Virus record (IMG/VR): IMGVR_UViG_3300032737_000190
Coordinates: 1-55,123 of that record
Direction: 5' to 3' (one strand)
DNA from: a virus
Lineage: Duplodnaviria > Caudoviricetes
Length of the DNA: 55,123 nt
A program made the position numbers and the translations under genes. Numbering within the stretch: the first letter of the stretch is position 1; the number at the start of each line of letters is the position of its first letter. Positions 5,621 through 48,506 of the stretch are shown one piece after another. Below the pieces are notes generated by a model that was given only the letters and a program-made list of their open reading frames with translations, was not told where the DNA came from and did no database searches.

Positions 5621-6934
5621 ATGCCTAAAGCTACTCAATCAAAATCGGCCGCGCAGAATATTCCTCTGTCACAGAAAATTACCATGGTACCTACGAAGGT
5701 ACTGAAGTGCGCTGAGTATAATCCTCGGAAACATGACGATGTTTCCAAAGAGCAACTCAAGGAAAGTTTTCGGCGATTTGGGGCAGTCGATCCCTTGATC
5801 GTCAATAGTTCTCCTAAACGCAAGAACATTATTATCGGCGGTCATTTCCGTAAGGAAGTCGCTGAAGAACTGGGCATTAAAGAATTGCCTGTTGTCTATG
5901 TTCACATTGCAGATATCGAGAAAGAACGAGAACTTAATCTCCGTCTCAACCGAAATACCGGAGAATGGGATCTTGAACTACTGAAGAAGTTTGATATCGA
6001 ACTTCTACTCGATGTTGGATTTGATGACAGTGATCTCTCAGATATCTGGGATGACATGCTGGGGACTGAGGATGATGAATTTGATGTCGAAGAGGAACTC
6101 GCAAAGATTGATAAGCCAAAGACCAAATTAGGCGATCTCTATCAGCTAGGATCACATCGCTTGCTGTGTGGCGATGCAACCGAAATGGATAACATTAGGA
6201 GGCTGTGTGGAGAACAGAAGATCAATATGGTCTACACGGATATTCCTTACAACATCAACCTAGACTACTCAAAGGGCATCGGAGGTAAGGGTAACTATGG
6301 CGGTACGACAGATGACCATAAAACTGACGATGTGTACCATGACTTTGTCAGCTCTATTATCAAAAGCGGTCTTTCGGTTGCAAGTGTAGACAGTCACTTC
6401 TTCGTGTGGTGCGACCAATCCTACGTTTGGCTGCTACAACAGTTATATCGAGAACATAGCATCACATATAAGCGCACATGTCTCTGGATTAAGAACGGTG
6501 CGAATGTAACGCCACAAGTGGCATTCAATAAGGCATACGAACCGTGTGTTTACGGAATAAGGGGCAAGCCTTATCTCAATACTAAGGCGACCAATTACCA
6601 TGAAGTACTCAACAAGGAGGTCGATTCTGGTAACCGTACCATCGATGACATCATGGATTTGATGGACGTGTGGCTCGTAAAGAGACTCGCTGGGAGCGAA
6701 TATTCACATCCCACTGAAAAGTCCCCAACATTACATGAAAAACCACTCAGACGCTGTACGCGCCCCAATGACATTGTGCTTGATATGACGGCGGGCTCAG
6801 GAAGCACATTGATTGCCTGCGAACAGATGAAACGTCGAGCTTTTCTCTGTGAGATAGAACCTATTTTTTGTGACCTGATCCTTCACAGGTACGAAGAACT
6901 CACAGGTACTAAAGCTATCCTTCTTCAATCATGA
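5621..6934 (+). CDS. ParB/Srx-domain DNA methyltransferase (N6/N4, beta class), core A
   Basis: N-terminal YNPRK...DPLIVN...IIGGHFR ParB motif; DIPY, HPTEK, DMTAGSGST; start at ATG 5621. Confidence 0.9.
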   Translation: MPKATQSKSAAQNIPLSQKITMVPTKVLKCAEYNPRKHDDVSKEQLKESFRRFGAVDPLIVNSSPKRKNIIIGGHFRKEVAEELGIKELPVVYVHIADIEKERELNLRLNRNTGEWDLELLKKFDIELLLDVGFDDSDLSDIWDDMLGTEDDEFDVEEELAKIDKPKTKLGDLYQLGSHRLLCGDATEMDNIRRLCGEQKINMVYTDIPYNINLDYSKGIGGKGNYGGTTDDHKTDDVYHDFVSSIIKSGLSVASVDSHFFVWCDQSYVWLLQQLYREHSITYKRTCLWIKNGANVTPQVAFNKAYEPCVYGIRGKPYLNTKATNYHEVLNKEVDSGNRTIDDIMDLMDVWLVKRLAGSEYSHPTEKSPTLHEKPLRRCTRPNDIVLDMTAGSGSTLIACEQMKRRAFLCEIEPIFCDLILHRYEELTGTKAILLQS

Positions 6935-7710
6935 GTAAAAGCACTATCAAATACGGCGATATGTTTCAGCTCGGGGCACACAAACTCCTGTGTGGCGACT
7001 GCTGTGATCTAAAACTTATCCAGCCCTTCCTTGGCTCCGACAGTATCTCTTTGCTACTTTCGGATCCTCCATACTCAATAAATTACGTTGCAGGCAAGAA
7101 AGGATTTACTCAATCGAAACAGGTGCACAAGAACATTCAGAATGATCATTTACAATCTGACGACGAGTACCGGAATTTCTCTCGGACTTGGATCGAAGCT
7201 GCACTCCCTTCGTTCGCGACGAAGAACGCAGTCTACATCTTCAACTCCGACAAAATGATGGTACCTCTGATCCTCGGAATGCGTGACGCTGGATGTCACT
7301 TTGCGCAGCTGCTCATCTGGGTAAAGACCGCAGCAGTTATCGGGAGATTGGACTACATTCCTCAGCATGAACTTCTGATTTATGGGTGGTACGGCAGACA
7401 TGCTTTCCAGAAATCCAAAGATAAAAGTGTGCTCGTGTGCCCAAAGACCAAGAAAAACTCGCTACACCCAACCATGAAACCCATCAGCCTTCTACGTCGT
7501 CTTATTCTCAATAGTAGCAAAGTTGGAGATATCATCTATGACCCATTCGGTGGTTCTGGTTCTACGTTGATTGCTGCAGAGCAGACGAAACGTAGGTGTG
7601 TGATGGTAGAGATAGATCCGCAGTACTGCCAAGTCATCATCGATCGCTTTGAGAAACTTACTGGAAAAAAGGCAAAAAAGATTTCGATACCTCAAATTAC
7701 CCATGTCTGA
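6931..7710 (+). CDS. DNA methyltransferase (N6/N4), core A
   Basis: DPPY, HPTMKP, DPFGGSGST; ATGA overlap with the upstream gene. Confidence 0.92.
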   Translation: MSKSTIKYGDMFQLGAHKLLCGDCCDLKLIQPFLGSDSISLLLSDPPYSINYVAGKKGFTQSKQVHKNIQNDHLQSDDEYRNFSRTWIEAALPSFATKNAVYIFNSDKMMVPLILGMRDAGCHFAQLLIWVKTAAVIGRLDYIPQHELLIYGWYGRHAFQKSKDKSVLVCPKTKKNSLHPTMKPISLLRRLILNSSKVGDIIYDPFGGSGSTLIAAEQTKRRCVMVEIDPQYCQVIIDRFEKLTGKKAKKISIPQITHV

Positions 7711-8203
7711 AGATACTACTCCAGCAAAGGCAGATAGTACGGTTGCAGCGAGACAGGCGCATCTGCGTACACAGCTCCTTGAACAATTCAAAAAGGTGCC
7801 CATCATTCATACTGCATGTGAAAAAGTCGGTGTTGCTCGCGCAACCTACTATCGCTGGAGAAAAGAAAATACTGAATTCTGCAGAGCTGCCGATGAGGCA
7901 CTCGATGATGGCAGGCTACTTATGAATGACATGGCTGAATCACAACTGCTCTCAGCCATTCGTGATCAAAACATGACTGCTATTATTTTCTGGCTCAAAA
8001 ACAGACACGTTGCCTATACGCCTCGGTTGCAAGTGACAGCCAAGACCGAGGTTGATGAAACATTAACGCCGGAGCAGGAAGAGACTATTCGAGAGGCACT
8101 TCGGCATGCTTCCTTACTTCCTTCACCATCTACTTATGACAATAATTCCGAAAAAGGATCAGGAAATCCTGAACCGAATGCTCAAGGAAAGACCAGTCCG
8201 TAA
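7703..8203 (+). CDS. HTH protein, terminase small subunit-like, core A
   Basis: ACEKVGVARATYYRWRKE HTH and AIIFWLKNR; directly upstream of and overlapping terL. Confidence 0.7.
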   Translation: MSEDTTPAKADSTVAARQAHLRTQLLEQFKKVPIIHTACEKVGVARATYYRWRKENTEFCRAADEALDDGRLLMNDMAESQLLSAIRDQNMTAIIFWLKNRHVAYTPRLQVTAKTEVDETLTPEQEETIREALRHASLLPSPSTYDNNSEKGSGNPEPNAQGKTSP

Positions 8204-9626
8204 AGCAGTGTGCAAACAGAACTTGTACTGGTATCTGCTCTTCTACTTTGCACACTACATTAAGTACTCGTTTGCAGAGTTCCATCATATTCTAATTCAC
8301 ATTTTGGAAGACAGATGCAAGCGATTGATAACGGTTGTAGCATTCCGTGGCTCTGGTAAATCAACCATTGTATCCCTCATTTATCTTCTCTGGGCCATCA
8401 TGGGTCGTGAGGAACGCAAATTCGTTCTTGTTGTTGGCAAAACACAAGAACAAGCTCGGCAACTACTACGAAACATCCGAACGGAATTAGAGACGAATAC
8501 CTTGTTACGAGGTGACCTAGGGCCATTCCACGAGGAAGAGGATGAATGGCGCAACATGTCCCTTGTGCTCTCGAACTATGGAGCACGTATTACTGCCATT
8601 TCTGTTGGACAAGGTATCCGAGGACTGCGCCATGGGCGTTACCGTCCTGATCTAATCCTCTGTGATGACATCGAAGATCTGGAGTCAGTAAAGACACGAG
8701 AGGCTCGTGATAAAACACACGAGTGGTACACAAGTGAGCTCGTGCCTGCTGGTGATAAAGGGACGCGCACGGTTGTTGTCGGAAACTACTTGCACGAAGA
8801 TTCCCTGACGCAAAGGCTAAGAATGCAATCAGAGAAATCTTCTCATACATCTTCATACATTCATTGTCCGTTGGTTGATGAAGATGGTATCTGTGCATGG
8901 ACAGGGAAATACCCGACAGCAGCAGATGTTGAAGAAGAACACCAACGTGTCGGAGATGAGAGAGCGTGGCATCGTGAATACTTGTTGCATATTCTCTCCA
9001 CCGATGAGCAGATTATTCAGCCAGAATGGATTGAGTACTACGATACGATTCCACCAATCGGACATCCAAAATTCAATGTCTCAGCAACGGGAGTGGATCT
9101 AGCCATTTCTAAAAATGATTCTGCAGACTTTACAGCAATGGTTTCGGCAATAGTTTTTGGTGAAGATCAGGATATGCGTGTGTACATCCTTCCAAATCCA
9201 CTGAATGAAAGACTGACATCATTAGAAACCGAAGATGCAGCGAAAAAACTCGCACAGAATATTGGTAAAGGAAAAGACGAGCACCATCTCTACATTGAAG
9301 ATGTTGCGTACCAAAAGGCAATGATTGAGCGATTGGAATATGATGGATATCGAGCAAAGGGCATAAAGGTTCACATGCAGGATAAGTCTGCAAGACTACG
9401 GATCAATAGCCATATGGTGCAGTCTGGCAAAGTACTTTTTCCAAAAAAAGGCGCAGAAAGACTCATTGAACAACTTGTGCATTTTGGCATGGAGAAGCAC
9501 GATGACCTTGCTGATGCATTTGCAATTCTCTTGGCTGGGATACAGGAGAACAAAACGAATTACATTAAAATCACTATCATTAGACCGACACGTCTAAGAG
9601 ATCAAATGAGAAGCTGGGGATATTAA
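8136..9626 (+). CDS. terL: Phage terminase large subunit-like protein, core A
   Basis: Walker A AFRGSGKST, Walker B LILCDDIED, RNase H-like nuclease GVDLA...DFTA and HDDLADA. Confidence 0.88.
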   Translation: MTIIPKKDQEILNRMLKERPVRKAVCKQNLYWYLLFYFAHYIKYSFAEFHHILIHILEDRCKRLITVVAFRGSGKSTIVSLIYLLWAIMGREERKFVLVVGKTQEQARQLLRNIRTELETNTLLRGDLGPFHEEEDEWRNMSLVLSNYGARITAISVGQGIRGLRHGRYRPDLILCDDIEDLESVKTREARDKTHEWYTSELVPAGDKGTRTVVVGNYLHEDSLTQRLRMQSEKSSHTSSYIHCPLVDEDGICAWTGKYPTAADVEEEHQRVGDERAWHREYLLHILSTDEQIIQPEWIEYYDTIPPIGHPKFNVSATGVDLAISKNDSADFTAMVSAIVFGEDQDMRVYILPNPLNERLTSLETEDAAKKLAQNIGKGKDEHHLYIEDVAYQKAMIERLEYDGYRAKGIKVHMQDKSARLRINSHMVQSGKVLFPKKGAERLIEQLVHFGMEKHDDLADAFAILLAGIQENKTNYIKITIIRPTRLRDQMRSWGY

Positions 9627-9643
9627 AGCGTTACAAGACTGGA

Positions 9644-9669
9644 TACCAGAGCATTTCGGTGCTCTGGTA
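9644..9669 (+). other. Perfect 10-bp hairpin between terL and recombinase
   Basis: TACCAGAGCA-TTTCGG-TGCTCTGGTA (UUCG-type loop); no U-tract follows. Confidence 0.6.
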
Positions 9670-9679
9670 GCTCTATTAA

Positions 9680-9729
9680 AGGGCAAGTGGGCTGGCTCTC
9701 GCACCGGCTCTCTGGCATTGCTTGTAGGT
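9680..9729 (+). promoter_or_regulatory. Conserved pre-recombinase motif (candidate att/recombinase-binding site or promoter)
   Basis: Aligns without gaps to 47101-47148: GGCA, GCTGGCTCTYGCA, GGCAT and TTGTAGGT at identical offsets. Confidence 0.55.
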
Positions 9730-9756
9730 GCATTCAGCACTTTCCCCCTATAACCA

Positions 9757-11130
9757 ATGCCAACAGCAACCGCTACATCACCGACACTAACTGATACCAA
9801 TGCACAAGCAATCGCGGATCCCATTAGGTTTTGCCTATACAGTAGAAAATCCTCAGAAGAGGATGAAAGACAAGCCCTATCCATTGATTCACAGATTAAG
9901 GAAATGAAGGAACTCGCAAAACGCGATGGAGTTGAGATTGAAGAAATTCTCAGAGAGAGTCATTCTGCAAAAGACTCCGGGCAGCGACCGATTTTCAAGA
10001 AAATGATCGAGCAGATCGAAGAGGGTGAATTTGATGGCATCATCACATGGGCTCCTGACCGCCTGAGCAGAAATGCAGGAGATCTCGGCAGCCTTGTTGA
10101 CCTCATGGACAGAGGTAAACTCAAGTGCATTCGTACGCACGGGCAAACATTTACAGATAATCCGAACGAGAAGTTCCTTCTGATGATTCTCTGCTCACAA
10201 GCGAAGCTGGAGAATGACAATCGTGGTATTAACGTGAAGCGCGGACAGAGGGCACGAGCACAGATGGGATATCGACCATGCTTGCCACCACTCGGCTACC
10301 TAACCGAACGAAAAGCTGGAGAGAGCAGGAGCAGTACAGTGGTAGATTCTATTCGAGGACCAGTCATCACCGAGATGTTCGAACAGGTTGCTTATCGGGG
10401 TGCAAGTGGACGTACTCTCTTTCACTGGTTGGTTGATGAGAAGGGGTTTCGGACACGGAAGGATAAGAAACCAAGCCTCTCCATGCTCTATCGCATGTTG
10501 CGCAACCCCTTCTACATCGGGAAGTTCGAGTATCCCAAAGGTAGTGGTAAATGGTACAGAGGTGACTATGAGCCATTGGTGAGTAAGGATTTGTTTGAAG
10601 AAGTGCAAAAGCTTCTTGATATGAATATGTCCCATAACAAATCATGGGGATCCAAAGACTTTGCCTTCGTGCGGATGATGACATGCGGTTCCTGTAAATC
10701 AGGAGTGACTGCTGAGGAGAAATTTAAGAAGCTCAAGAATGGATCAGTGAAACGGTATGTGTACTACCGCTGTACTCACAGTAAAGACCTGACGTGCAAA
10801 GAACCGTCGATACGAGAGGATGTGCTGATAGAGCAGCTACTCGATATGTTGGATGATCTGGATATGGACAGCGCCGGAATGAAGAAGAGTCTGAAGGAAG
10901 AACTGGAACGATACAGCAAGTTCTCTGATGTCCTCGGGGTGGACATGGAGTTCAAGAAGAAGTTGAAGGAGATTGATGGGAGGAAATATGCAGAGTATGT
11001 GCTTCGGGAGGGTAGCAGTGAGGAGAAGAGGGGGTTGTTGGAGAATATGAAGAGTGAAATCACTCTGATAGATGGCAGTATCTCCACAAATCACGAGAGT
11101 TCTGGACGAAGAAGTGTAAAAAGAAGATAA
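9757..11130 (+). CDS. Large serine recombinase, core A
   Basis: CLYSRKSSE catalytic motif, DRLSRN, recombinase domain, Zn ribbon CGSC...YYRC...C. Confidence 0.95.
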   Translation: MPTATATSPTLTDTNAQAIADPIRFCLYSRKSSEEDERQALSIDSQIKEMKELAKRDGVEIEEILRESHSAKDSGQRPIFKKMIEQIEEGEFDGIITWAPDRLSRNAGDLGSLVDLMDRGKLKCIRTHGQTFTDNPNEKFLLMILCSQAKLENDNRGINVKRGQRARAQMGYRPCLPPLGYLTERKAGESRSSTVVDSIRGPVITEMFEQVAYRGASGRTLFHWLVDEKGFRTRKDKKPSLSMLYRMLRNPFYIGKFEYPKGSGKWYRGDYEPLVSKDLFEEVQKLLDMNMSHNKSWGSKDFAFVRMMTCGSCKSGVTAEEKFKKLKNGSVKRYVYYRCTHSKDLTCKEPSIREDVLIEQLLDMLDDLDMDSAGMKKSLKEELERYSKFSDVLGVDMEFKKKLKEIDGRKYAEYVLREGSSEEKRGLLENMKSEITLIDGSISTNHESSGRRSVKRR

Positions 11131-11138
11131 TTGCAACT

Positions 11139-11459
11139 ATGCCATCTGCAAACGCTCAAAATATTGAATCGGCATTAGAGGATATGAGAAATGTACATCT
11201 TCCTGATGATGTAGATCTTTTTGCATTAGAGATTCAGGAAGATCATGGAATTTGGGAAGTCGTTGTAATTTTTGATCCTTTTTCTCATATTATTCCCGAT
11301 GGACATCCTTATCCTGCATCACGTGATGTACCATCACCTGACTTAGAATTTTCCTCAAAAGAAGAGGCATTGGATTTTGCACAAAAATTACATGATGTTT
11401 TGGTTGAGCGAGGTAAGCAGCCAGAAGGCAATACAACATACCTCTTTGAAGCAAGATAA
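11139..11459 (+). CDS. Hypothetical acidic protein
   Basis: 106-aa ORF filling the gap between the recombinase and the Avs-like gene. Confidence 0.6.
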   Translation: MPSANAQNIESALEDMRNVHLPDDVDLFALEIQEDHGIWEVVVIFDPFSHIIPDGHPYPASRDVPSPDLEFSSKEEALDFAQKLHDVLVERGKQPEGNTTYLFEAR

Positions 11460-11472
11460 ATATTGAATTTGT

Positions 11473-14400
11473 TTATCTATAAATCCCTTCTATCTGTATA
11501 GCCATTTGAATGGCTCTTTCCCATCCAATTTCAAGGTATGCATCCAGTGTCAGCAAGAAATCTTCTCTTGCCTGTTCATCTTCAGCTAACAGTGATTTGT
11601 GATCTGCAAAAATTCTCTCTAATAGCTCAACGGTTTTATCTGAAGCCATATGCTCATAGGTAATTCCGTTCGGAAGAGCTGCAAGGGTCATCTTTCGAAG
11701 CCAAGAGAGTGCTATTTTGGTATTGAATGGAAGCAGCTCCTCAATTGCTTGCAAAACATCATATGCAATGGCCGGATGAGCCATTTCACACAGAATATTT
11801 AAAAGCGGTGTTTGCTCTTTCCAAAATTTACTAATCTCTTCTGCTGGATTACCCTTTCCTGCATTCCATTCTTCCACCTTCGCCTTTGCAAGGAAATGCA
11901 GTTCGGTAGAAGCAATTTCAAACGTTCTACTTATGGTATTAATACCTGTTGGCGGCTCTGATGGTCTTTTATTGGGTTCCATTTTTAGCACTCGCTCTCT
12001 GTACTGATGGAGGGTTGAGTTTCCTGCTGCGAGTATTCGTAGCAATAATGCATGTGCCCTTTTTGCCTGAGCATCTGTGACTGAAATATGTTTAGGCATC
12101 CTCCTTGGAAAGGAGTAGTCCAGTGCTCCTTCTGCAAATCCAAAAAACGTGTGTGCATTCTCCTCTGGGGCTTCCAGAATTTTTTCTGTTAATTCCTCAA
12201 TCCACTTCCATTGTTCTGTAATGGAATAGCTTGAATATGTCCTCCCCAGTCCTTGCTGCCACTCATTCAAGTGTAAGTCTTTTGCGGTTTGTAATAGCTT
12301 CTGAGCGAATGCATCGGCTCTGCTTGCATCAATTTTTCTTGTTCTGAGCAGGAAGCCATTATGTAATACTGCTGAGAGTAGAGCATAGTTTCTAGCTCTA
12401 TTTGGCAAATCATCCAACCACTTTTCTAACGTATCCAAAACAAAGAGGGGGCTCTTCTCCTGAAGTAGGAAAATTTTTGAAGCCAAATGAAAACCAATCT
12501 GTGGGTCGTCTGCGTGAGCAACCTTCTTTAGGAGTTCCAGGTATGCGGAATCAAGTTTCTTCTTATTCCATACCAAATACATCAAACCAGATGTGGCTGT
12601 ATAGCGTGGATCAATGCTTCCATAAGTAACAACCTCGTTGTACTGATCTACTTCTTTGGCATCAACTGGATTGTTCAGTTCTTTTTCCAGTGCTGTCCTA
12701 AACACATCAAATGCCTTCTTAGAGATATCTTGTTTAAGATCAGAAAAGCTACGCACTATTTGGAGGTAGGCATTCACAATTTCATTTTGTACTATGCTCC
12801 TTAGCTTAGGGTCGGCATCACTACTAGTATTTAGATAGGATTCAGCATCACTAAGTTTCTTTTGAAGATAAGCAAGGTTTCGTTTTCCCACCTTTGCAGC
12901 AAGCTTCCCAATTTCTTGAGCCATCTTGTCCAAATCCTTATTTGCTTTGTTCGTTAGAGAAATTCCTTCCCTAGCCAACTCTTCTTCTCTCGAAAAATGT
13001 ACACCCCGAACAGTGCTATAACCTCTATCTTCATCAATTTTCACATCTTCTTTTTCGAATGACTCAACTATCGATTTGGCTGCATCAGTCCTCTTCTTCT
13101 TAGGAATTAATGAAAGGTACTTTGCCTGTTGGCGTTTTACATACTCATCCAAATGTGAATAACCAAGATATTTTGCATGAGATGTTTTTAATGAAAGCAC
13201 AGCCTTTTGAAAATCATCTACGAATTTATCTCCAAGATGCTTTTGAAAAGCCATGAAGCACTGACCGATAGGATGCATTAGGTCTACACACATTAATAAT
13301 TGTGGAATACAAATGAGCTTGGAAAGCTTTTTTGCATAGAACCTTGGATTGGATGCACCAGCAGTTAACAGCCTCCTCCACACAGATGCTGGTGTCTTTT
13401 CTGTAACAAGTGAAGGTTGAATATCCTTCCATTGATCCTCTGTAATTTCATTAGCTAGAAATTGCTGCCAATTGCCAAGCATCTTACTTGTCTCTTCTCG
13501 ATTGTTATCATCGTGATCCCATATGTGGGAATAATCAGTTAAAACACCTACCTTCTTTCCGTTCCATAAAAATAATTGCACCGCAGGAAGGTCTCTGTCC
13601 TTCAACTCTGAGTAGGCACATGAAACATTGATTAGAGCCATTGTTGCATACTTAGGACTTGAGTGAAGAAAGCCATCAAATTTCTCCTGTAGAAAATGAA
13701 GACCGCTTGTGTAGTCCTGTCTCCGGTTGCTGCTGATAGATAGGATTACACTGTTGCTAAACCCTGTTGTTGATTCATCCCTCTCTTCATATCCATACAT
13801 GGCGGAATAAACCTTTGCAACGAGTGCTGGGTCAGCATCCCATAAGCCATCAATATGCCAAGAAAGCTGCTGTGCTTGAATGTATCCAGTTTTGACTATC
13901 TCTACTGGTTCAATAATTTTTCGCACGATGACGGCAGCTTCAACTGGATTACTGGCAAACGAATGGCACAGCCAAGTTATGGGTCTGCTGATCAAACGCA
14001 TTGGCTCTTCTGTAGTCCACAAATACTCGATCAGAGCAACGACTGCCTGATTGAATGTTCTCTTCTGGTCATCTGTAAGTTGGGCTATATGACCATTTGC
14101 TTCTTGAAGGATTTGATAAGACTTGCGAACATGAGGATCGCTTTTGCTTTGTGCTAGTTTCAATGCAAGATCAAGCCAACATTGACCTGTGCCTTCTGCA
14201 ATTTGCTTTGGCAAGCAAACATATGTTGCAGCAGTAATAACTCCAAACAGAAGTTTTCTCCACTCATCAGAGTCCTGTTTATCAGATAACGATTGCTGGA
14301 AGGGATGGTCTAGGTCATCAACACTTCTTACTTCAGTAGCAATTGCCACATAGCCAGGGAACTTTTGTAGATGTGGCACTGCATCACTACTTTGAATTGC

Positions 14401-16362: not shown

Positions 16363-16504
16363 ATTCCTTAATTAAATTGTAATAAGCACACCACTCACAA
16401 CCCTCATCACTCTTCGGAATCTTTTTTGCACACAAACACTTGTGAGCGTCAACGATAGCATCCTCTATCCAATTGGGAGATAACATTAGAAGTGTGAGCA
16501 TCAT
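16355..16504 (-). pseudogene. Remnant C-terminus of a Cas4/RecB-like PD-(D/E)xK nuclease
   Basis: Untracked 49-aa ORF ...NWIEDAIVDAHKCLCAKKIPKSDEGCEWCAYYNLIKEYE*; its stop overlaps the Avs-like start region (ATGAATAA). Confidence 0.5.
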
Positions 16505-16506
16505 AA

Positions 16507-20815: not shown

Positions 20816-20822
20816 AGATTTA

Positions 20823-32844: not shown

Positions 32845-32897
32845 TTTACTTCTTTTTCATGACAGTTTTCTCATCACTCATTTACCGGCTTCACCTC

Positions 32898-34796: not shown

Positions 34797-34817
34797 AGCT
34801 AATATTCCCTCTTCTGT

Positions 34818-35483: not shown

Positions 35484-35489
35484 CACCCT

Positions 35490-36763: not shown

Positions 36764-36797
36764 GGCAAGTGGGTCGCTTTAGACGCGCACCTATTGG
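36764..36797 (+). repeat. 34-bp direct repeat, right copy
   Basis: GGCAAGTGGGTCGCTTTAGACGCGCACCTATTGG. Confidence 0.92.
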
Positions 36798-37243: not shown

Positions 37244-37966
37244 TTATTGCTTCTTCGATTTTTTGTTTTGGTTTGTATATTCAAATTTGTAATCGTTTTT
37301 CTGACCTGCAGGAGGATCGGAATACTTCATGTATTTCATGATCTTGTAGTCTTTCAGATGCTCGAACGCATCGACGAATTTATACCACGGCTCGACTCGG
37401 AACCAATCCTGCCCATCTCTGGTCTCTTTAATCGATTTGCTATCTACTAACTTCTTCGGAGGCAAGGTGTCCTTGTTATCTTTGATCAGAAATACTTGCA
37501 CATGAGGTTTCTTCTCAGCATTGGTAATAGTTCTGGGCTTCAGTATTCCCTCTCGTACCCACTTACGCAGTGTCGAGCTTCTGATATTGAAACACGACTG
37601 CATATCATAACTGGAATACCAATTGTCTCGGTTCTTAGCAATGGATGCCGGAACCTGCTTGCGATCAACACCCTTCTGACACGTCATGCACTTAATGCCG
37701 TATTTGTCGTACCAAGTCTCTTCTTTGGAACAGGACTGACCACAAATTGCACAGGTGTAGCCTTCGCCATCCAGATGAAACCCCTTCGGATTCTCTTCTA
37801 GACGTTTCTGGCGTTTCATATCCTCAATCATGAAGTCGTACAGCACATGAGCTAGATTCTGCATATTGTAGGCAGCCTCAGTTGCCTCTTCCCATGTGTA
37901 TTCCTTGCCATATTCCTTCTCCATAATTTCTTTCATCTCCTGAATTCGCTCTTTGGTTAGCTCCAT
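37244..37966 (-). CDS. Zn-finger plus MerR/excisionase-like HTH protein (paralog of 3363-4028)
   Basis: Shares PKGFHL.G.GYTCAIC..SCS.EETWYDKYG.KC..CQ and DMQS.FNIR..TLR.W with 3363-4028. Confidence 0.75.
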   Translation of the reverse strand: MELTKERIQEMKEIMEKEYGKEYTWEEATEAAYNMQNLAHVLYDFMIEDMKRQKRLEENPKGFHLDGEGYTCAICGQSCSKEETWYDKYGIKCMTCQKGVDRKQVPASIAKNRDNWYSSYDMQSCFNIRSSTLRKWVREGILKPRTITNAEKKPHVQVFLIKDNKDTLPPKKLVDSKSIKETRDGQDWFRVEPWYKFVDAFEHLKDYKIMKYMKYSDPPAGQKNDYKFEYTNQNKKSKKQ

Positions 37967-40634: not shown

Positions 40635-42095
40635 TTAAAGAGAATCCAAGATATGAAAAATCTCCACCATTGCGAGCGTGTCCAGTTCGCAATACTTCCG
40701 CATATGGCTACAAGTTTCTATTTTCTCTTGTTCACTTCTACCATCCGTCAGCATTCGATACCATGATAGTGATGCTGTACCACCTTCCTGAATCTCCAGG
40801 TCTTTGTACGAAAGTTCTGGCACGAGTACTGGTAGTACATCCTTAATCGAACAGCTGCCACGGAAATCAGGATGGACGTAGAGCTGCTTCCGAAAAATTT
40901 CCATCAGATCATACACACGTTCATTGATGCTCAGTAGAAACGGAGCATGAGCTGGCACAAGCTCAGCAATCTCTTTGTTGCGACTCATCTCAAAGCTCTT
41001 ATTCCACACGATGACACTACCATCGCTATCTATGTCTCCAGACAATCGCTGTGCCAGTGTTTCTGCAGGATTTTCCAGTGCATCAGCTAAGTATTCGTAG
41101 TGTTCCACTTCTGCATCTGGTTCGCGCAAAACATGCAGTGAATACTGGAAGACCATCTGCTGGTACGGTTTGTAGCCATCAAAAAGAGGAATCGCTGGAA
41201 AGAATGTTTCATAATCGAGGAAGTACAGTGGATATTCTAGTTTGGATAGCTCCTTTTTAATGTCCTTAGTCTCAATAATCGGCTTTCCGTCTCGTGCAGC
41301 TTGAACCTGACACACCTGTGCCGTGGAGAGTGAGTATTCCTGAGGTAAGTCCGTGATTGCACGGATGCCAGCTTCGTAGAGTTCTTGTGCTTTTGTAGTG
41401 CGAATGCGGCTGAGGTTAAAGACGGAGTAGTCAGGCAAGTCAGGGTAGCAATAATGAAGGCATGGGCAGTCTTTCGCGCTACAAGTACAAGTGACATCAG
41501 TACGAGTGGGTGTATCTTTTCGTTCTATGAGTTCGAGAGCCTTTTGCACTTGCGCTTCCACTTGCAACTCGACTTCGTTTACCTGATCGGTAATTTCTCC
41601 CACAGTGATGAACTCCTGCGGATCAATGTCTCCATGTTTCACAAAATCCTTGTTTACATGGGCAAGGAAGAGCTTTCCGATATCGTATCCTGCCTTGCGA
41701 AACGCTAAACGCTGGAAACAAACATCGTGGATGTGATCTTTTTTAACTTCGGTAGAACCTTTCACCTCGATGATATTCCAAAGATCGCCGTCTTTCTGCA
41801 GAACGTCTGCCATCGCCAGTAATCCCTCAGCTATTGCAGTTGCCTGATAGATGAGATTTTTACCATCAGCCGCCAGCTCCTGCGTTTTCTTCGCTCCTGC
41901 ATCATGGAACGCTTTAACATGTGCACCGCCTGGATAGAGTTTTCGGGCTACGTCCTCCACCATGTTTCCTTGTTCCAGAATCCACTGCACTTGTGCATCG
42001 TCCTCGCTCCCCTCTATATCAGTACGGCGGTTTTTCCAGAGCCAAAGATGGATCGGGCATTCGAGGTAACGAAGAAATTCTGACTTGGTGAGCAT
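40635..42095 (-). CDS. DUF2779 protein (paralog of 23836-25296)
   Basis: Also 486 aa; MLTKSEF...ECP, IIEVKGST, YFLDYET, FQYSLH, YCELDTLAMVEIF. Confidence 0.85.
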   Translation of the reverse strand: MLTKSEFLRYLECPIHLWLWKNRRTDIEGSEDDAQVQWILEQGNMVEDVARKLYPGGAHVKAFHDAGAKKTQELAADGKNLIYQATAIAEGLLAMADVLQKDGDLWNIIEVKGSTEVKKDHIHDVCFQRLAFRKAGYDIGKLFLAHVNKDFVKHGDIDPQEFITVGEITDQVNEVELQVEAQVQKALELIERKDTPTRTDVTCTCSAKDCPCLHYCYPDLPDYSVFNLSRIRTTKAQELYEAGIRAITDLPQEYSLSTAQVCQVQAARDGKPIIETKDIKKELSKLEYPLYFLDYETFFPAIPLFDGYKPYQQMVFQYSLHVLREPDAEVEHYEYLADALENPAETLAQRLSGDIDSDGSVIVWNKSFEMSRNKEIAELVPAHAPFLLSINERVYDLMEIFRKQLYVHPDFRGSCSIKDVLPVLVPELSYKDLEIQEGGTASLSWYRMLTDGRSEQEKIETCSHMRKYCELDTLAMVEIFHILDSL

Positions 42096-42192
42096 GTAAT
42101 TTTAGTCAAATGAGAGGTAATTGTACGCCAAATTAACACTGATGGGTAAGCAAAACTGGCGGTATACATCGGTACACCCTATAATGTGCGTA

Positions 42193-42990
42193 ATGTCATT
42201 AGATGGAGACTCTCAACGGCATACTAACAAGCCTACTAAATGGCGTGGAGTGCCAATCAAACACGCACTAGCAACTGTTGAGGGGCAACAATATTTAGCA
42301 GACCGAATTGCTCCAATGATAGCCCTACACATGCCAGCCATGCAGCAGTTACAAGAAGATATGCAAATGATTGCAGATGTAGCAAACAAGGCAATGGAGC
42401 CGTATCGTGAACTGGGACGACAGATGGGAAGGGCCATGGAAATGTACAGGCATCAAGCAGAACAAGTCGGCCGAGCAATTCGTAAGGCTCAACCGTATCT
42501 GGATGCAGTAAACAGGGAGATTGCTCGTCGCAATGCAATAAATGTTACGGCAACAGTAGTCACTGCAAATGAAGAAATGGAGAGTGAATCGAAAGCAATT
42601 ACTGTCCAAACTTCGAAACCTGACGATTGGCTACCATACCAACTGAAAGGTTCTACCGAATTATGTTCTTCTGTAGCAATCCATTTTGGAAGACAAATTA
42701 TACAATTCCGCTATCAAGACGGTTGGGTTTGTCGCAATATTCAGCCTCTACAAATGCAGATTGTAGAATTTCTCTGGCGGGAATGTACGGGTGGAGACAC
42801 GCGAGGCTATGCGGTAAAGGAATTGGGTATTGAGCTTACAGATGGCAATAACAAACCACGTTGTAGCAGTTCTATTTGCGGTCGTATCAATGAAGTAAAT
42901 GAATTAGCCAGACCATTTACCTACTTGAATCTGATTATTTCCGATAATGGTAGGCGTAGATTCAATCAACTGTTATTCCAGATACAATAA
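42193..42990 (+). CDS. Hypothetical protein with putative C-terminal winged-helix DNA-binding domain
   Basis: Helical N-terminal half; QMQIVEFLW...YAVKELGIEL...SSICGRINEVN...LIISDNGRRRFN; TATAAT 7 nt before ATG 42193. Confidence 0.55.
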   Translation: MSLDGDSQRHTNKPTKWRGVPIKHALATVEGQQYLADRIAPMIALHMPAMQQLQEDMQMIADVANKAMEPYRELGRQMGRAMEMYRHQAEQVGRAIRKAQPYLDAVNREIARRNAINVTATVVTANEEMESESKAITVQTSKPDDWLPYQLKGSTELCSSVAIHFGRQIIQFRYQDGWVCRNIQPLQMQIVEFLWRECTGGDTRGYAVKELGIELTDGNNKPRCSSSICGRINEVNELARPFTYLNLIISDNGRRRFNQLLFQIQ

Positions 42991-43024: not shown

Positions 43025-43183
43025 GTAAAGACTATTTAGTAATCACAATGCGTATTTGCAAGGTGAGATATTTCGCTTTATGACAGTAAGAATCAGCGGC
43101 TACTAAAAATTACTACAGCTCAGTCGTTGCAAAGAAAGCATCGTTCGTCGCATTCAATAGACACTCATTTCTTTGTAAATCTT

Positions 43184-44473
43184 ATGACTGATCCACTCCA
43201 AATCCACACAGTCGCAATCAGCGACCTCAACCCTGCTCCATATAACCCACGTAAGTGGGGTACTAAACAGGAGAAAGACCTGATCGAAAGCATCAAACGC
43301 TTTGGGTTCGTCGATCCGCTGATCGTCAACGGAGCGGATGAACGACTAAATGTAGTCATCGGGGGGCACTTCCGACTGCACATCGCTCGTAAACTGGGCA
43401 TGACTGAAGTGCCAGTGGTATACATATCGATTCCAGAAATTGAAAAGGAGAAAGAGCTAAACTTGAGATTGAACCGTAACCTCGGGAGCTGGGATTTTGA
43501 AATGCTTAAAGAGTTCGATGTCAGTCAGCTTATAGATGTAGGTTTTGAAGACGCTGATCTTAGTAATATCTGGGACGATGCACTGGAAGCCGATGATGAT
43601 GGATTTAACACAGAGGAAGCACTTGAGGAGATCAAAGAGCCTACGACGAAGCTGGGTGACTACTACGCACTTGGCAACAGTCGTCTGTACTGTGGTGATG
43701 CCACAATTTCAGAGGTAGTGGCAATTCTCACGCAAGGCCATACGCCCTCCATGTTGTACTGCGATCCGCCCTATAATATTGGGCTTTCGTATAACTCAGG
43801 AATCGGAGGCAAGAAAAATTACGGAGGGTCGACCAACGACAACAAAACCGATGATGAGTACCGTACATTTCTGCAGGCTACGATCCGAAACGGACTCAAG
43901 TACTCAACTGATGACATTCATGTTTTCTACTGGTGCGACTCCAACGCCATAGGACTTGTGCAGAACCTCTACCGAGAGGAAAGCGTAACACCACGCCGAG
44001 TAGCACTGTGGGTAAAGAACAATGCCAACATCACACCGCAGATTGCCTTTAGTAAAGTGCATGAACCCTGCGTCTATGGCACTCGTGGTACGCCGTACTT
44101 GTCAGATCGCATGCAGCAATTGACCGAAGTGTTAAACAAGGAAGTTGGCACAGGAAACCGTTGCATCGAAGACGTTATGGATATTTTAGATATATGGCTG
44201 GAACGGCGACTGCCGACCGAGCAATACCGTCATCCCACGGAAAAACCTCCGACCCTGCACGAGAAGCCGCTACGACGTTGCACAAAGCCCGGTGACACCG
44301 TTCTCGACTTATTTGGTGGCTCGGGTAGCACCCTAATTGCGTGCGAGCAGATGAAGCGCATTGCGCTCCTCTGTGAAATTGAACCTGTCTTTTGTGATCT
44401 TATCCTTCTTCGTTATGAGCAAATCACTGGAAACAAACCAGTTCAGCTCGCTTGCGGTTGGCAGCGTAGTTGA
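43184..44473 (+). CDS. ParB/Srx-domain DNA methyltransferase, core B
   Basis: YNPRK, DPLIVN, GGHFR; DPPY, HPTEKP, DLFGGSGST. Confidence 0.9.
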   Translation: MTDPLQIHTVAISDLNPAPYNPRKWGTKQEKDLIESIKRFGFVDPLIVNGADERLNVVIGGHFRLHIARKLGMTEVPVVYISIPEIEKEKELNLRLNRNLGSWDFEMLKEFDVSQLIDVGFEDADLSNIWDDALEADDDGFNTEEALEEIKEPTTKLGDYYALGNSRLYCGDATISEVVAILTQGHTPSMLYCDPPYNIGLSYNSGIGGKKNYGGSTNDNKTDDEYRTFLQATIRNGLKYSTDDIHVFYWCDSNAIGLVQNLYREESVTPRRVALWVKNNANITPQIAFSKVHEPCVYGTRGTPYLSDRMQQLTEVLNKEVGTGNRCIEDVMDILDIWLERRLPTEQYRHPTEKPPTLHEKPLRRCTKPGDTVLDLFGGSGSTLIACEQMKRIALLCEIEPVFCDLILLRYEQITGNKPVQLACGWQRS

Positions 44474-45209
44474 ACTTGGACACCATCGGCTCTTGGTTGG
44501 CGATTGTCTCGATACGGCTCTCGTCGCTCAGTTTCTCCACGGCGAGCAGATCGACCTTCTACTAACAGATCCTCCGTATGGCATCGCCTATGTGGAAGGC
44601 AAAACAGCATTCACTGGAAACGTATCGCATAAACCGATTGCCAATGATGGCGAGCAGAGCGAAGCGCAGTACCGTCGATTTACTCGTGACTGGCTGTTTG
44701 CCTCAAAACCGTTCTACACCAAAAAGAATGCTGCGTACATTTTCCACGCTGACCGCATGCTCTTTGCATTACGTGGTGGCATGGAAGATGCAGGGTGGAA
44801 GTTCGGGCAAATGCTTATCTGGCTCAAGACTGCAGCGGTCATTGGTCGACTTGATTACTTACCTCAGCACGAACTCGTCGCCTACGGCTGGTGCGGAACA
44901 CATTTATTTCGACGCAGTAAGGACAAGAGCCTTCTCATTCATCCACGGCCAAGCAAAAGCAAGCTACATCCGACGATGAAACCTGTGGGGCTACTACGAA
45001 GATTGATTCTGAACAGCACAAGTACTGGGGCAACTGTGTACGACCCATTCGGTGGCTCTGGCTCAACACTAATTGCCTGCGAACAAACGAAACGACGCTG
45101 TCTGATGGTGGAACTTGACCCGAAGTACTGCAAAGTGATTGCGAAGCGTTACGAAAAACTCACTGGCACCACTCCTGTTATCCGCTCCCCCTTACCCCAT
45201 GCCCGCTAA
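44415..45209 (+). CDS. DNA methyltransferase (N6/N4), core B
   Basis: DPPY, HPTMKP, DPFGGSGST; start position uncertain. Confidence 0.9.
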   Translation: MSKSLETNQFSSLAVGSVVELGHHRLLVGDCLDTALVAQFLHGEQIDLLLTDPPYGIAYVEGKTAFTGNVSHKPIANDGEQSEAQYRRFTRDWLFASKPFYTKKNAAYIFHADRMLFALRGGMEDAGWKFGQMLIWLKTAAVIGRLDYLPQHELVAYGWCGTHLFRRSKDKSLLIHPRPSKSKLHPTMKPVGLLRRLILNSTSTGATVYDPFGGSGSTLIACEQTKRRCLMVELDPKYCKVIAKRYEKLTGTTPVIRSPLPHAR

Positions 45210-45654
45210 ACGCACACGTAAATCATCTGCTTCTGTACAAGCCAGAAAGTCACAAGAGCAGGAGCAATTGCTAATGCAGCTCAAGAAAACACCAGTCATC
45301 CAGATTGCCTGTGAAAAAACAGGTGTAAGCAGGGCATCGTACTACCGCTGGCGAAAGGAAGATGAAGAGTTTTCCTATGACTGCGATAAGGCACTTAGTG
45401 AAGGCAAACAACTCGTGAACGACCTTGCTGAATCACAACTGCTGGCAGCCATTCGTGACGGACACATGACGGCCATTATTTATTGGCTCAAGCACCATCA
45501 TAAAGACTATGAAACCCGTGTTGCCGTAACAGCCACGGTCAAACAGCAGGATGAACTCACGCCCGAACAGGAGGCCACTGTGAAGCAAGCACTAACCCTT
45601 GGACAACTATTACCCCCAGCATCTGATGATGGAACTGAACCCAATGTTGACTGA
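45199..45654 (+). CDS. HTH protein, terminase small subunit-like, core B
   Basis: ACEKTGVSRASYYRWRKE, AIIYWLKHH; homolog of 7703-8203. Confidence 0.7.
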   Translation: MPAKRTRKSSASVQARKSQEQEQLLMQLKKTPVIQIACEKTGVSRASYYRWRKEDEEFSYDCDKALSEGKQLVNDLAESQLLAAIRDGHMTAIIYWLKHHHKDYETRVAVTATVKQQDELTPEQEATVKQALTLGQLLPPASDDGTEPNVD

Positions 45655-47089
45655 ACGGTTGATTAAAGATGCTGCTGTACGGCGACAAGTTACGAAGGAG
45701 AGTCACCTGTGGTTCTTTCATCTCTACTTCTCGCACTACGTGCAGTACGAAATTGCACCGTTTCATCGAGAGATGTTTAAAACAACCGAAGATCCAGAAG
45801 CAAAGACATCGGTGATTCTTGCCTTTAGAGGTTCTGCAAAGTCAACCATCATCAGTATGTCGTACCCGATCTGGGCGATTCTCGGCAAGCTAGAGAAGAA
45901 ATTTGTATTGATCCTTGGTCTAACCCAACATCAGGCTCGCCAGCACCTTAAGAACATCAAGGACGAGCTGGAACGTAACCAACTACTTCGGAATGACCTT
46001 GGACCATTTGAAGAACGTGAGGAGTGGAATGCCTACAGTCTCGTCATACCAAAGTATGGAGCAAAGATTATGGCGGTATCAACCGACCAGTCAGTACGAG
46101 GATTACGACATGGACCACACCGCCCCGATCTTATTATCTGCGATGACATCGAAGACTTGGTGTCTGTAAAAACCAAAGAGAGTAGAGATAAGGTTGATGC
46201 CTTTGTCTCTGGTGAAGTAATACCTGCTGGAGATAGAAACACGAAAGTGGTCTTCGTTGGAAACCTCCTTCATGAAGACTCACTGCTTATGCGACTGAAA
46301 GATCGTATCGAAGCGGATGAACTAGAGGGTACATTCCAGCGTTATCCACTACTGGATGAAAATGACGTACCTCTGTGGCCAGGAAAATTTCCAAGTACGC
46401 AGTACATTGAAAAAGAAAAGAAGCGTGTTGGTGATGAGTCGTCGTGGCACCGAGAATATTTGCTGACAATCCTCTCCACGGCAGAACGTGTCATACGACC
46501 AGAGTGGATACAGTTTTACGACGAACATCCGACTATTCAGCAGGACGGATACTTCTGTACTGCGATTGGCATCGATCTGGCAATTTCTCTTCGTGATAGT
46601 GCTGATTATACGGCTATGGTGGCTGCCCGCATCTTCCATGAAAACGGTGTGCGTAAAATCTATATACTACCTAATCCGATCAACGAGAGACTGACTTCAC
46701 TGGAGACATTGGATCGTGCGAAACAAATGGCTGATATTCTTGATAAGAAGAGCAAGACACGCATTTTTATCGAAGATGTCGGGTACCAAGGCTCATTGGT
46801 TGAACATCTGAAGGAAGCCAGTTACAAAGCGGAGGGGGTGAAGCTGAAGGGATCAGATAAGCGGAGTCGTCTGGCACTGGCAGCAAGAGCTGTGCAGGAC
46901 GGCACAGTGGTATTTCCGAGGCACGGCTGCGAAGATCTCATAAACCAAATGGTGAATTTTGGGATCGAAAAGCACGACGATTTAGCGGATGCATTTTCAA
47001 TGCTTGTGCTGCAGGCAACCAGTATCAAGCGAAGACGTGCGATGTTTGTGACATTAGATGACAGCTGGCTCTATAAGTCGTCTTTTTGA
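45626..47089 (+). CDS. terL: Phage terminase large subunit-like protein, core B
   Basis: AFRGSAKST, LIICDDIED, GIDLA...DYTA, HDDLADA. Confidence 0.88.
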   Translation: MMELNPMLTERLIKDAAVRRQVTKESHLWFFHLYFSHYVQYEIAPFHREMFKTTEDPEAKTSVILAFRGSAKSTIISMSYPIWAILGKLEKKFVLILGLTQHQARQHLKNIKDELERNQLLRNDLGPFEEREEWNAYSLVIPKYGAKIMAVSTDQSVRGLRHGPHRPDLIICDDIEDLVSVKTKESRDKVDAFVSGEVIPAGDRNTKVVFVGNLLHEDSLLMRLKDRIEADELEGTFQRYPLLDENDVPLWPGKFPSTQYIEKEKKRVGDESSWHREYLLTILSTAERVIRPEWIQFYDEHPTIQQDGYFCTAIGIDLAISLRDSADYTAMVAARIFHENGVRKIYILPNPINERLTSLETLDRAKQMADILDKKSKTRIFIEDVGYQGSLVEHLKEASYKAEGVKLKGSDKRSRLALAARAVQDGTVVFPRHGCEDLINQMVNFGIEKHDDLADAFSMLVLQATSIKRRRAMFVTLDDSWLYKSSF

Positions 47090-47100: not shown

Positions 47101-47148
47101 GGCATTAGAGCTGGCTCTTGCAACACCTATCCGGCATCAATTGTAGGT
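47101..47148 (+). promoter_or_regulatory. Conserved pre-recombinase motif, copy B
   Basis: Ungapped match to 9682-9729; also carries CACCTAT, as does the 34-bp repeat. Confidence 0.55.
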
Positions 47149-47174
47149 AGATTTAACCATTCACCCACATTTCT

Positions 47175-48506
47175 ATGCCGACAGCAGTCGCACCACCACT
47201 GGCGCAAACAGACACGCAAATACCAATAGAAAACAAGCCTCTTCGCTATTGCCTTTACGCTCGTAAATCGAGCGAAGAAGACGAGCGACAAGCTCTTTCC
47301 ATCGACTCGCAGATACAAGAAATGACAGAATTAGCGAAGCGTGATGGTGCAGAAATCGAAGAGATACTAAAAGAAAGCCATTCTGCAAAAGCGTCTGGGA
47401 ATAGGCCAGTTTATCAGAAGATGCTACAACTTATTGAAGAGGATGAATTCGATGCAATACTGACATGGGCACCTGATCGACTCAGTAGAAATGCTGGCGA
47501 TCTCGGTACACTTGTGGATTTGATGGATCGAGGCAAATTGAAATGCATCCGTACCCATGGGCAGACCTTCACCAATAACCCTAACGAGAAGTTCCTACTC
47601 ATGATTCTCTGCTCGCAGGCAAAGCTGGAAAATGACAACAGGGGTATCAATGTGAAGCGAGGCCTAAAGACCAGAGCACAGATGGGATACCGTCCCTGCA
47701 TGGCACCGCTTGGTTACCTTCATGAACGACTAGCAGGTGCAACACAAAGTCGAATAGTGGTAGATCAAGAGCGTGGTGAAGCGATTGGAGAAATGTTTGA
47801 GCTTGTTGCGTACAAGGGTGCAAGTGGAAGGAAATTAGCCGAATGGCTTTACAATGAGAAAGGAATACGAACTCGCAAAGGCAAGAAGATTACTCTCAGC
47901 ATGATTTATAGGATGCTACATAATCCCTTCTATACTGGAAGGTTTGCATGGAACGGTGTGATGCAAGATGGAGACTATGAACCACTGGTGACAAAAGAGT
48001 TGTTTGATGAAGTGCAAAAGCTACTAGATATGAATAAGGCACACGACAAAGCGTGGGGCACAAAGGACTTTGCCTTCGTACGGATGATGACCTGCGGTTC
48101 TTGCAGCTCAGGTGTGACTGCGGAGGAAAAGTTCAAGAAGCTGAAGAACGGTACCGTGAAACGATATGTCTACTACCGCTGTACCCATGCCAAAGACCTC
48201 AAGTGCAAGGAGAAAGCGATTCGAGAAGACAATCTGATCGAGGAGCTACTCGGCCTAATCGAGAAGTTGGATCTGGATACGTCAAGTGTGCGAAAGAAGC
48301 TGCAAGATGAGATGGATCGGTATGCAAAATTCTCAGACGTTCTTGGAATAGATGTAGAGATGCAAAAGAAATTACGTGAGATTGACGGCCTGAAGTATGC
48401 TGAATACATCCTTCGGGAAGGAGGGAGTGAAGAGAAACGGAGTTTGCTGGAGAGTATTAAAAGCAAAATATTCCTACATGGAACTAGGATTACTTTAGAA
48501 AACTAA
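47175..48506 (+). CDS. Large serine recombinase, core B
   Basis: CLYARKSSE, DRLSRN, CGSC...YYRC...C; close homolog of 9757-11130. Confidence 0.95.
   Translation: MPTAVAPPLAQTDTQIPIENKPLRYCLYARKSSEEDERQALSIDSQIQEMTELAKRDGAEIEEILKESHSAKASGNRPVYQKMLQLIEEDEFDAILTWAPDRLSRNAGDLGTLVDLMDRGKLKCIRTHGQTFTNNPNEKFLLMILCSQAKLENDNRGINVKRGLKTRAQMGYRPCMAPLGYLHERLAGATQSRIVVDQERGEAIGEMFELVAYKGASGRKLAEWLYNEKGIRTRKGKKITLSMIYRMLHNPFYTGRFAWNGVMQDGDYEPLVTKELFDEVQKLLDMNKAHDKAWGTKDFAFVRMMTCGSCSSGVTAEEKFKKLKNGTVKRYVYYRCTHAKDLKCKEKAIREDNLIEELLGLIEKLDLDTSSVRKKLQDEMDRYAKFSDVLGIDVEMQKKLREIDGLKYAEYILREGGSEEKRSLLESIKSKIFLHGTRITLEN

Follow-up and report, generated by a model that had tools for sequence, protein, structure and literature searches.

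The window examined here, the whole of IMG/VR record IMGVR_UViG_3300032737_000190 (55,123 bases, linear, CheckV completeness 56%), carries two copies of a five-gene core made up of a ParB_N-fused DNA methyltransferase, a second DNA methyltransferase, a small helix-turn-helix (HTH) protein resembling the terminase small subunit (TerS), a terminase large subunit (TerL) and a large serine recombinase. The two copies belong to a coherent family of elements that forms one clade, is capsid-less, is often present in several copies and is associated with restriction-modification and other defense genes. We propose, at a probability of about one half, that these are repressor-controlled, satellite-like elements that encode a whole terminase together with methylases and borrow capsids.

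An initial annotation of this DNA, made from its letters alone, had described the five-gene order as occurring twice, with genes that are intact and clearly diverged. Both statements were borne out. The order is present twice, with open reading frame (ORF) calls that allow earlier starts (5504 instead of 5621, and 43127 instead of 43184; Table 1), and all ten core genes are open frames. Amino acid identity between the copies is 58% for the ParB-methylase, 60% for the second methylase, 53% for the TerS-like protein, 51% for TerL and 72% for the recombinase, a resemblance that on sequence grounds indicates real homology and no chance likeness. Two gene pairs beyond the core are also common to both copies: DUF2779 proteins (23836-25296 and 40635-42095; 47% identity) and a 221/240-aa gene (p221 and p240; 49% amino acid identity, and 70% DNA identity over 224 nt). 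Therefore, the repeated unit is larger than five genes.

Both window TerLs carry every invariant column of a 30-sequence family alignment, in agreement with the earlier statement that the ATPase and nuclease motifs are kept in the two copies; these columns include what we take to be a P-loop, an acidic Walker-B-like stretch and C-terminal Asp clusters. The TerL family profile matches the ATPase of T7 gp19 (4bij) at 1.5e-5. With an N-terminal P-loop ATPase and the acidic residues of a C-terminal RNase-H-like nuclease, the protein is a TerL by its predicted domains. For the TerS-like proteins, matches to PHROG TerS families range from 4e-10 to 5e-8, and in both cores the gene overlaps the start of terL. 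When an AlphaFold2 (AF2) model of copy 1 was compared with 48,161 PDB chains, the top chain was the Sf6 TerS (3hef; Z 7.7, 91 residues aligned; runner-up Z 5.5), and Foldseek by itself gave weak matches. This small protein, with its HTH, its helical core and its position just upstream of terL, is a predicted TerS. The recombinase, which has all three Pfam domains in both copies, is by domain content a large serine recombinase of the integrase/transposase type; its nearest solved relative is the SPbeta recombinase (YokA).

Table 1. Features of the 55,123-base window, with coordinates, strand and the matches or models behind each assignment.
Feature	Coordinates	Strand	Basis
Left-arm gene p221, element 1	3363-4028	-	Paralog of p240; atlas: weak HTH_17 lead
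Left-arm cargo p429	4089-5378	-	Atlas feature score 0.94 to cluster named ApeA-like HEPN
ParB_N-fused N6/N4 DNA methyltransferase, copy 1	5504-6934	+	PF02195 4e-8, PF01555 3e-26, phrog_498 9e-96
Second N6/N4 DNA methyltransferase, copy 1	6931-7710	+	PF01555 2e-29
TerS-like HTH protein, copy 1	7649-8203	+	HTH_Tnp_1_2; phrog_309 and phrog_4044 (both terminase small subunit)
TerL, copy 1	8106-9626	+	phrog_38 4e-80
Large serine recombinase, copy 1	9757-11130	+	Resolvase, Recombinase and Zn_ribbon_recom (Pfam)
Defense gene block	11473-26583	-	PADLOC and Pfam; meets recombinase 1 gene tail-to-tail
Host backbone between elements	27598-36722		Hsp20, sigma factor, SLH protein, HlyD-ABC-MacB operon
Left-arm gene p240, element 2	37244-37966	-	Paralog of p221
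GmrSD-type restriction enzyme, left-arm cargo	38879-40606	-	GmrSD_N and GmrSD_C; PADLOC HEC-05 2e-236
DUF2779 protein, divergent from core operon	40635-42095	-	PF11074 8e-43
First gene of operon 2	42121-42990	+	AF2 model: long helix and OmpR/PhoB-like winged-helix domain
ParB_N-fused methyltransferase, copy 2	43127-44473	+	Pfam/PHROG, domains as copy 1
Second methyltransferase, copy 2	44361-45209	+	Pfam, domain as copy 1
TerS-like HTH protein, copy 2	45139-45654	+	Four PHROG TerS families
TerL, copy 2	45599-47089	+	phrog_38 6e-78, Terminase_6C 4e-6
Large serine recombinase, copy 2	47175-48506	+	Resolvase, Recombinase and Zn_ribbon_recom, as copy 1
Convergent cargo: 1526-aa SF1 helicase with Top1-type zinc ribbon, and reverse transcriptase	48509-54405	-	Pfam/PADLOC

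A single-protein scan of genomes gave no match, and an alignment-based pattern scan succeeded, finding at least 544 loci that encode a matching TerL in species-representative genomes and 152 in IMG/VR. In a large protein collection, more than 2,500 proteins match TerL, mostly at ~50% identity. We examined the best 80 of the at least 544 genomic loci and the best 79 of the 152 IMG/VR loci, with up to 10 kb on each side. The ParB-methylase lies upstream in 106 of 116 family loci (all 10 others have less than 2.5 kb of sequence left of TerL), a second methylase is found in 54, a TerS-like gene in 101 and a same-strand recombinase downstream in 94 (12 of the 22 lacking one have less than 3 kb to the right); ParB-methylase, TerL and recombinase are all present in 89. 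Clustering of the neighboring ORFs (1,451 ORFs from the first 80 loci and the window) revealed only three other widely common families, namely a LexA/S24-type repressor in 30 loci, an OB-fold Sie-like protein in 19 and a TIR protein in 12. Members of the p221/p240 family are found four to nine genes upstream of TerL in 9 of the 116 loci.

The closest phages make clear what the elements lack. Sister contigs (L116-L118, L122-L128), whose TerLs are 31-42% identical to that of the element, are ordinary phages: an SPP1-type portal gene (phrog_2662/phrog_12) directly follows TerL in all six contigs tested, protease or capsid genes come next, and a ParB-like gene, joined by a methylase in L116, lies upstream of TerL. 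Among 50,697 isolated-phage records, tblastn found no TerL relative above 33% identity. No portal, capsid, tail or conjugation family was recognized in the window, as the initial annotation had claimed, either in Pfam scans of 47 ORFs or in PHROG scans of 32, and 30 structural proteins from the sister phages gave no tblastn match there. Across 118 family loci (1.83 Mb including the window), the same 30 proteins, 16 of which cross-match among the sister phages themselves as a control, matched in L118 only; this 5.8-kb fragment was therefore classed as a phage. Thus a portal and an HK97-fold capsid gene linked to terL, the mark of a tailed prophage, are present in the sister phages and absent from the window and from 117 of the 118 loci.

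In a FastTree tree of 169 TerLs, a branch with support 99 divides the 41 phage-like rows from the capsid-less elements, which thus form one clade. The sister Caudoviricetes have the order ParB/methylase-TerS-TerL-portal, and the genes that come after TerL differ: portal, protease and capsid genes in the phages, the recombinase or cargo in the element. The element core resembles the half of a phage packaging module that handles DNA, with a recombinase where the portal and capsid genes would be, and we conclude that the elements descend from the start of a tailed-phage late operon (ParB/methylase, TerS, TerL).

From 15 pairs of closely related loci we obtained Nei-Gojobori dN/dS values. For TerL these were 0.012-0.15 (17 comparisons); dS was below 1 in seven of these, six giving 0.024-0.042 and one 0.15. 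The other core genes gave similar values, the sole exception being one TerS pair that had hardly diverged. Purifying selection is strong on every core gene. In 50 carrier genomes there are 73 matches to the family profile, of which 68 have no internal stop, and 16 of the 50 genomes have at least two TerL-family matches.

These results bear on whether the window simply holds two prophage remnants, each reduced by its own decay to the same genes. In favor of such relics, IMG/VR lists the record as viral and the TerL lineage is of phage descent. The same gene order in 116 loci, the support-99 branch that sets off one clade, dN/dS far below 1 in every core gene, intact open frames and the lack of structural gene fragments speak against them, and we regard this explanation as extremely unlikely. 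The initial annotation had favored a stable element family over two decays, and had named relaxed selection on terL, or close homologs usually embedded in complete prophages, as findings that would overturn that view. The family withstood both: selection on terL is not relaxed, and neither the loci, as described above, nor, with few exceptions, the carrier genomes bear the marks of complete prophages. The 50 carrier genomes, metagenome-assembled genomes (MAGs) of 0.6-2.1 Mb, were searched for the portal (phrog_12) and HK97 capsid (PF05065) families, which both searches matched in control genomes; a portal was present in 3 and a capsid in 4, leaving 47 of 50 without the SPP1-type portal and 46 of 50 without the HK97 capsid. 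The same counts weaken a split arrangement resembling a gene transfer agent (GTA), in which the structural genes would lie elsewhere in the genome and the five genes would be the packaging part of a domesticated particle system. Conservation of TerL at ~50% identity across distant hosts does suggest a conserved partner, as such a system would have, but we think it very unlikely.

In 32 of 116 loci, a LexA/CI-type repressor (HTH and S24 peptidase) is encoded upstream in divergent orientation (in L076, Peptidase_S24 1e-29 and LexA_DNA_bind 2e-5). Both window copies lack it and have different genes upstream. The first slot of the operon holds a plus-strand gene in 79 of 97 loci, and these genes come from at least nine unrelated families. 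That the slot might hold one homologous gene throughout was rejected by hhalign of the window family against two others (probability 0.1%); unrelated regulators therefore fill it. In operon 2 of the window, the AF2 model of the first gene product has a predicted local distance difference test (pLDDT) score of 70, and its top Foldseek matches are all OmpR/PhoB effector domains (E 8e-3; template modeling score to target 0.71).

One genome with two copies (G037) indicates how this region evolves. Between its copies, amino acid identity is 97% for the ParB-methylase, 98% for the TerS-like protein, 98% for TerL, 96% for the recombinase and 96-98% for two left-arm genes. The copies diverge at the S24 repressor (34%) and at the first gene (43%), and the genes around the repressor are replaced outright. 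Such a mosaic would be expected of hetero-immune, repressor-controlled temperate elements in one cell, and a swappable module of repressor and first gene is predicted to control the elements of the family.

The G037 pair also delimits the unit of inheritance. Similarity between its copies starts sharply at a 23-nt motif and ends at the recombinase stop codon; the same motif opens the similarity to L050 and occurs in L056. The unit is ~10 kb in the G037 lineage. Only one Saccharibacteria lineage showed a sharp left terminus (around position 3570 of L163); the left-arm genes of this lineage (167 and 217 aa) have no PDB sequence match. In three other Saccharibacteria genomes, a common 6.1-kb block ends exactly at the repressor and recombinase stop codons, with unrelated genes abutting it, and in one Peribacteria-like MAG two copies have large flanking genes in common at 76-78%. 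The conserved block of the family elements is 6-10 kb, to which variable cargo is added. By analogy, the units in the window would extend over ~3.3-11.1 kb and ~37.0-48.5 kb.

Two further observations concern multiplicity. Tandem pairs of intact TerLs are found in 15 of 116 loci (including L006, L010, L028, L031, L040, L046, L079, L085-L089 and L112). In the tree, the nearest neighbors of window TerL1 are first TerLs of tandem pairs and those of TerL2 are second ones, a lead toward the window TerLs representing two paralog clades of tandem pairs; two such clades were not resolved when tested on the FastTree tree. Also, a second serine recombinase (449-551 aa) lies on the plus strand two to nine genes upstream of the ParB-methylase in L005, L029, L035, L056, L063, L070 and L081. 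It is longer than the core recombinase in six of these seven loci, and the L056 copy overlaps the 23-nt motif of the left terminus with its 3' end. Its presence could reflect tandem elements or a variant with two recombinases. The TerLs of L017 and L022 (720 and 718 aa), with proteins P0058, P0100 and P0120, are ~200 residues longer than the rest.

The recombinase gene directly follows TerL in 50 of 94 loci, and the other 44 hold 135 inserted ORFs of at least 100 aa. The commonest Pfam families in these ORFs are ResIII (9), N6_Mtase, tRNA_anti-like and MarR (5 each), and SWI2_SNF2, N6_N4_Mtase and Eco57I (4 each); type I restriction-modification parts and RVT_1 with bAvd (3 each; diversity-generating retroelements) are also found. 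Among the 25 listed of the 102 Pfam families matched there is no phage structural family. The inserts between TerL and the recombinase are mostly restriction-modification and other defense genes, with helicase and retroelement genes also prominent.

Cargo in this position, downstream of terS and terL, would suit an element that is packaged in place. Headful packaging of the chromosome from a pac site in or near terS would then load helper capsids with the downstream cargo, the recombinase and the defense island, making the element a platform for lateral transduction. Defense genes that abut the recombinase, the failure to see excision joints and the lack of a replication module (see below) all agree with this. 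On the other hand, in four copies the core has been inherited along with its left-arm genes and immunity module, as far as the sharp left terminus, which points to a discrete unit moving whole, and a helper phage would still be needed. We consider packaging in place unlikely.

The satellite-like reading that we prefer would work as follows. The divergent repressor (LexA/S24-type in 32 of the 116 loci, other regulators in the window) would silence the operon. Upon induction, the two methylases would mark the element DNA and the recombinase would excise it; the element's own TerS and TerL would then recognize this DNA and pump it into the procapsids of an infecting helper phage. In the new cell, methylation would shield the DNA from restriction while the recombinase integrates the element. 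The elements have the general features of a phage satellite, in that they are integrative, lack capsid genes and carry genes for redirecting packaging; it is their recombinase-driven mobility, their packaging and their helper phage that we infer.

Several results weigh against such a cycle. Read evidence came from Logan contigs of four public runs compared with window positions 1-20000, and in these contigs, where starts, ends and rare junctions are invisible, no joint or excised form was present. In the likely source run, core depth was 10.6 compared with 8.6-9.9 in the flanks. A viral-metagenome run (X4) gave 100%-identical short contigs at a depth of 2-3, scattered over the core, the left flank and the defense block, with no core enrichment and no ends. 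Of the checks suggested in the initial annotation, the TerL tree gave one clade, and the searches for an excised form and for enrichment in contigs of a virome run were negative. There are no terminal repeats in any locus contig or in the window, and no attachment (att) site, in that no DNA motif is conserved around the recombinase gene by ungapped consensus. The space behind this gene (median 16 bp; at most 10 bp in 38 of 81 loci) would in most cases not accommodate an att site. No replication gene is recognizable in the conserved block, few carrier genomes hold a prophage-type capsid or portal gene, and no helper phage is known. Finally, characterized satellites are induced by their helper, and SOS-type induction through a repressor is unlike that.

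Loose ends of single contigs at 11354 and 11387, seen in a second sample of the same study, lie ~230-250 bp past recombinase 1, within a small ORF (11139-11459). These ends, a thin observation, could mark a cargo-exchange or recombination junction.

The lack of a visible excision or packaging signal and the rarity of prophage capsid genes in carrier genomes would also follow if the terminase module served defense or interference. Here the methylases would mark self, the TerS-guided TerL would cut or mis-package unmethylated phage DNA or occupy procapsids, and the recombinase would only move the island. One or two methylases always precede the ATPase-nuclease, as in restriction-modification operons, and the element both sits among defense genes and carries them. 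However, the portal-bearing sister phages share the ParB-like arrangement (with a methylase in L116), so that the element is likely to have inherited it from the packaging module. A repressor of the LexA/S24 or another type, with hetero-immune variants, also fits an inducible mobile element better than a constitutive defense. Interference and satellite transfer are not mutually exclusive, and we hold a role in defense or interference alone to be a real but minor possibility.

The known host range of the family is essentially the candidate phyla radiation (CPR). Among 301 genomes sampled evenly from the phylum of a Saccharibacteria carrier (Patescibacteria), 31 (~10%) contain the family. Some carrier records are titled Gammaproteobacteria (13) or Bdellovibrionota (6), for example L011, L018, L035 and L045, and their genomes are 0.9-1.6 Mb. 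All genomes in the order of one record so titled, G023, measure 0.6-1.4 Mb, and one of them, G156, is also in the sample of the phylum Patescibacteria; for that record at least, the title is probably a mislabel.

The DNA between the two elements of the window identifies their host. The MacB permease of the 27.6-36.7 kb block is 80% identical to Peribacteraceae proteins, every named match among its best 120 is from Peribacteria, Peregrinibacteria or Patescibacteria, and the HlyD-ABC-MacB operon is syntenic in two Peribacteria genomes. The ~27.6-36.7 kb stretch is, by these similarities, chromosome of a Peribacteraceae host lying outside the elements. MacB sets are cargo elsewhere, and the possibility that this block is element cargo was ruled out by the identity to Peribacteraceae chromosomal genes and the operon synteny. 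With host DNA between the copies, the record would be a chromosomal fragment of a freshwater Peribacteraceae bacterium that carries two elements ~37 kb apart. No unoccupied insertion site was definable, as the genes beside the HlyD-ABC-MacB operon differ in the two Peribacteria genomes. The 9.2-kb host block is flanked by a 34-nt direct repeat (27548-27581 and 36764-36797; 33 of 34 identical; two matches in 0 of 100 shuffles). One copy closely follows the TspO stop and the other that of the MacB permease, each at the inner edge of an island. There is no likeness beyond the 34 nt, no recombinase within the block and no match to the repeat among viral contigs. Searches found no tRNA genes and no Rfam match at gathering score.

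The remaining genes of the window are largely candidate defense genes. The block at 11473-26583 contains a PDC-M54A-like protein of 1629 aa, type III res and mod, a DrmD-like SNF2 helicase, a DUF2779 protein and a PDC-S11-like protein, all co-oriented, and is a possible composite defense system. In this block the type III res gene bears a TnsA-like endonuclease tail and the DUF2779 protein is Cas4-like. In the left arm of element 1, p429 has no Pfam, PHROG, PADLOC or PDB match and is possibly an ApeA-like HEPN protein, an atlas lead only. The placement of the DUF2779 gene at 40635-42095 recurs in L080. On the far side of element 2, the stop of the SF1 helicase gene is 2 bp past that of recombinase 2, and a reverse transcriptase (53188-54405, minus strand) at the window end has no Rfam intron match.

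How do these elements compare with known satellites? Phage-inducible chromosomal islands (PICIs), including the Staphylococcus aureus pathogenicity islands (SaPIs), and the phage-inducible chromosomal minimalist islands (PICMIs) are small, capsid-less, repressor-controlled islands whose TerS redirects packaging to helper capsids and which often carry defense genes. These islands have a tyrosine integrase, use the TerL of the helper and usually encode a primase-replication module. In contrast, the element has a large serine recombinase, its own TerS and TerL, methylases and no replication family that we could see, and it is not a PICI by these marks. The capsid-forming PICIs (cf-PICIs) encode, according to the available text of their description, their own TerS and TerL and also capsid, portal and head-tail connector (10.1101/2022.09.08.507074). 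The element shares with them its own TerS and TerL, but it has no capsid, portal or connector gene and so falls outside that class as well. Marine virion encapsidated integrative mobile elements (VEIMEs) are described, in the sections available, as capsid-less integrative satellites, some with serine recombinases, TerS and defense genes (PMC9618062). That source (PMC9618062) lists TerS and "motor-like ATPases" for them and places TerL among the helper genes, whereas our family has its own TerL. Known satellites either are without TerL or else have capsid genes too.

The closest published parallel that we found is NitKor-E1 of Ca. Nitrosopumilus koreensis, an integrated element with TerS and TerL as its sole virus-like genes, an integrase and restriction/toxin cargo, whose function is called "enigmatic" in the accessible text of its report (Krupovic et al. 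2019, PMC6563490). NitKor-E1 is a single archaeal case with a tyrosine integrase, and a likely relic in its authors' view as given there (PMC6563490); the present family has hundreds of members and is under selection, with methylases and a serine recombinase. The same 2019 survey, in the text available, states that terminase was not identified in non-viral mobile genetic elements (PMC6563490). A full-text literature search found no description of the element family, and elements of this kind may appear in the supplementary gene tables of PMC9618062 and PMC10085698.

Terminase counts as a viral hallmark, yet the lineage described here, which lacks capsid genes and keeps its whole terminase under selection, is common (at least 544 loci, and 31 of 301 genomes of one phylum). 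One consequence is that virus-detection pipelines file element loci as viral contigs, which inflates prophage counts in the host bacteria. The phages, gene exchange and defenses of CPR/Patescibacteria are poorly known, and most CPR bacteria are reportedly without CRISPR (PMC4742961). Given their restriction-modification and defense cargo, the elements may be a main route by which such tiny genomes gain immunity. If the satellite-like reading is true, they represent a new parasitic strategy in which the motor is brought along and the shell is stolen from a phage. A more doubtful idea is that the terminase has been freed from capsids altogether, so that TerS/TerL and the methylases would form a methylation-aware, ATP-driven translocase-nuclease of a non-viral element, acting as a restriction-like weapon or as a motor that processes or exports the element's own DNA in hosts where prophages are almost never present. 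If that were true, it would be the first case of a terminase at work outside the assembly of viruses.

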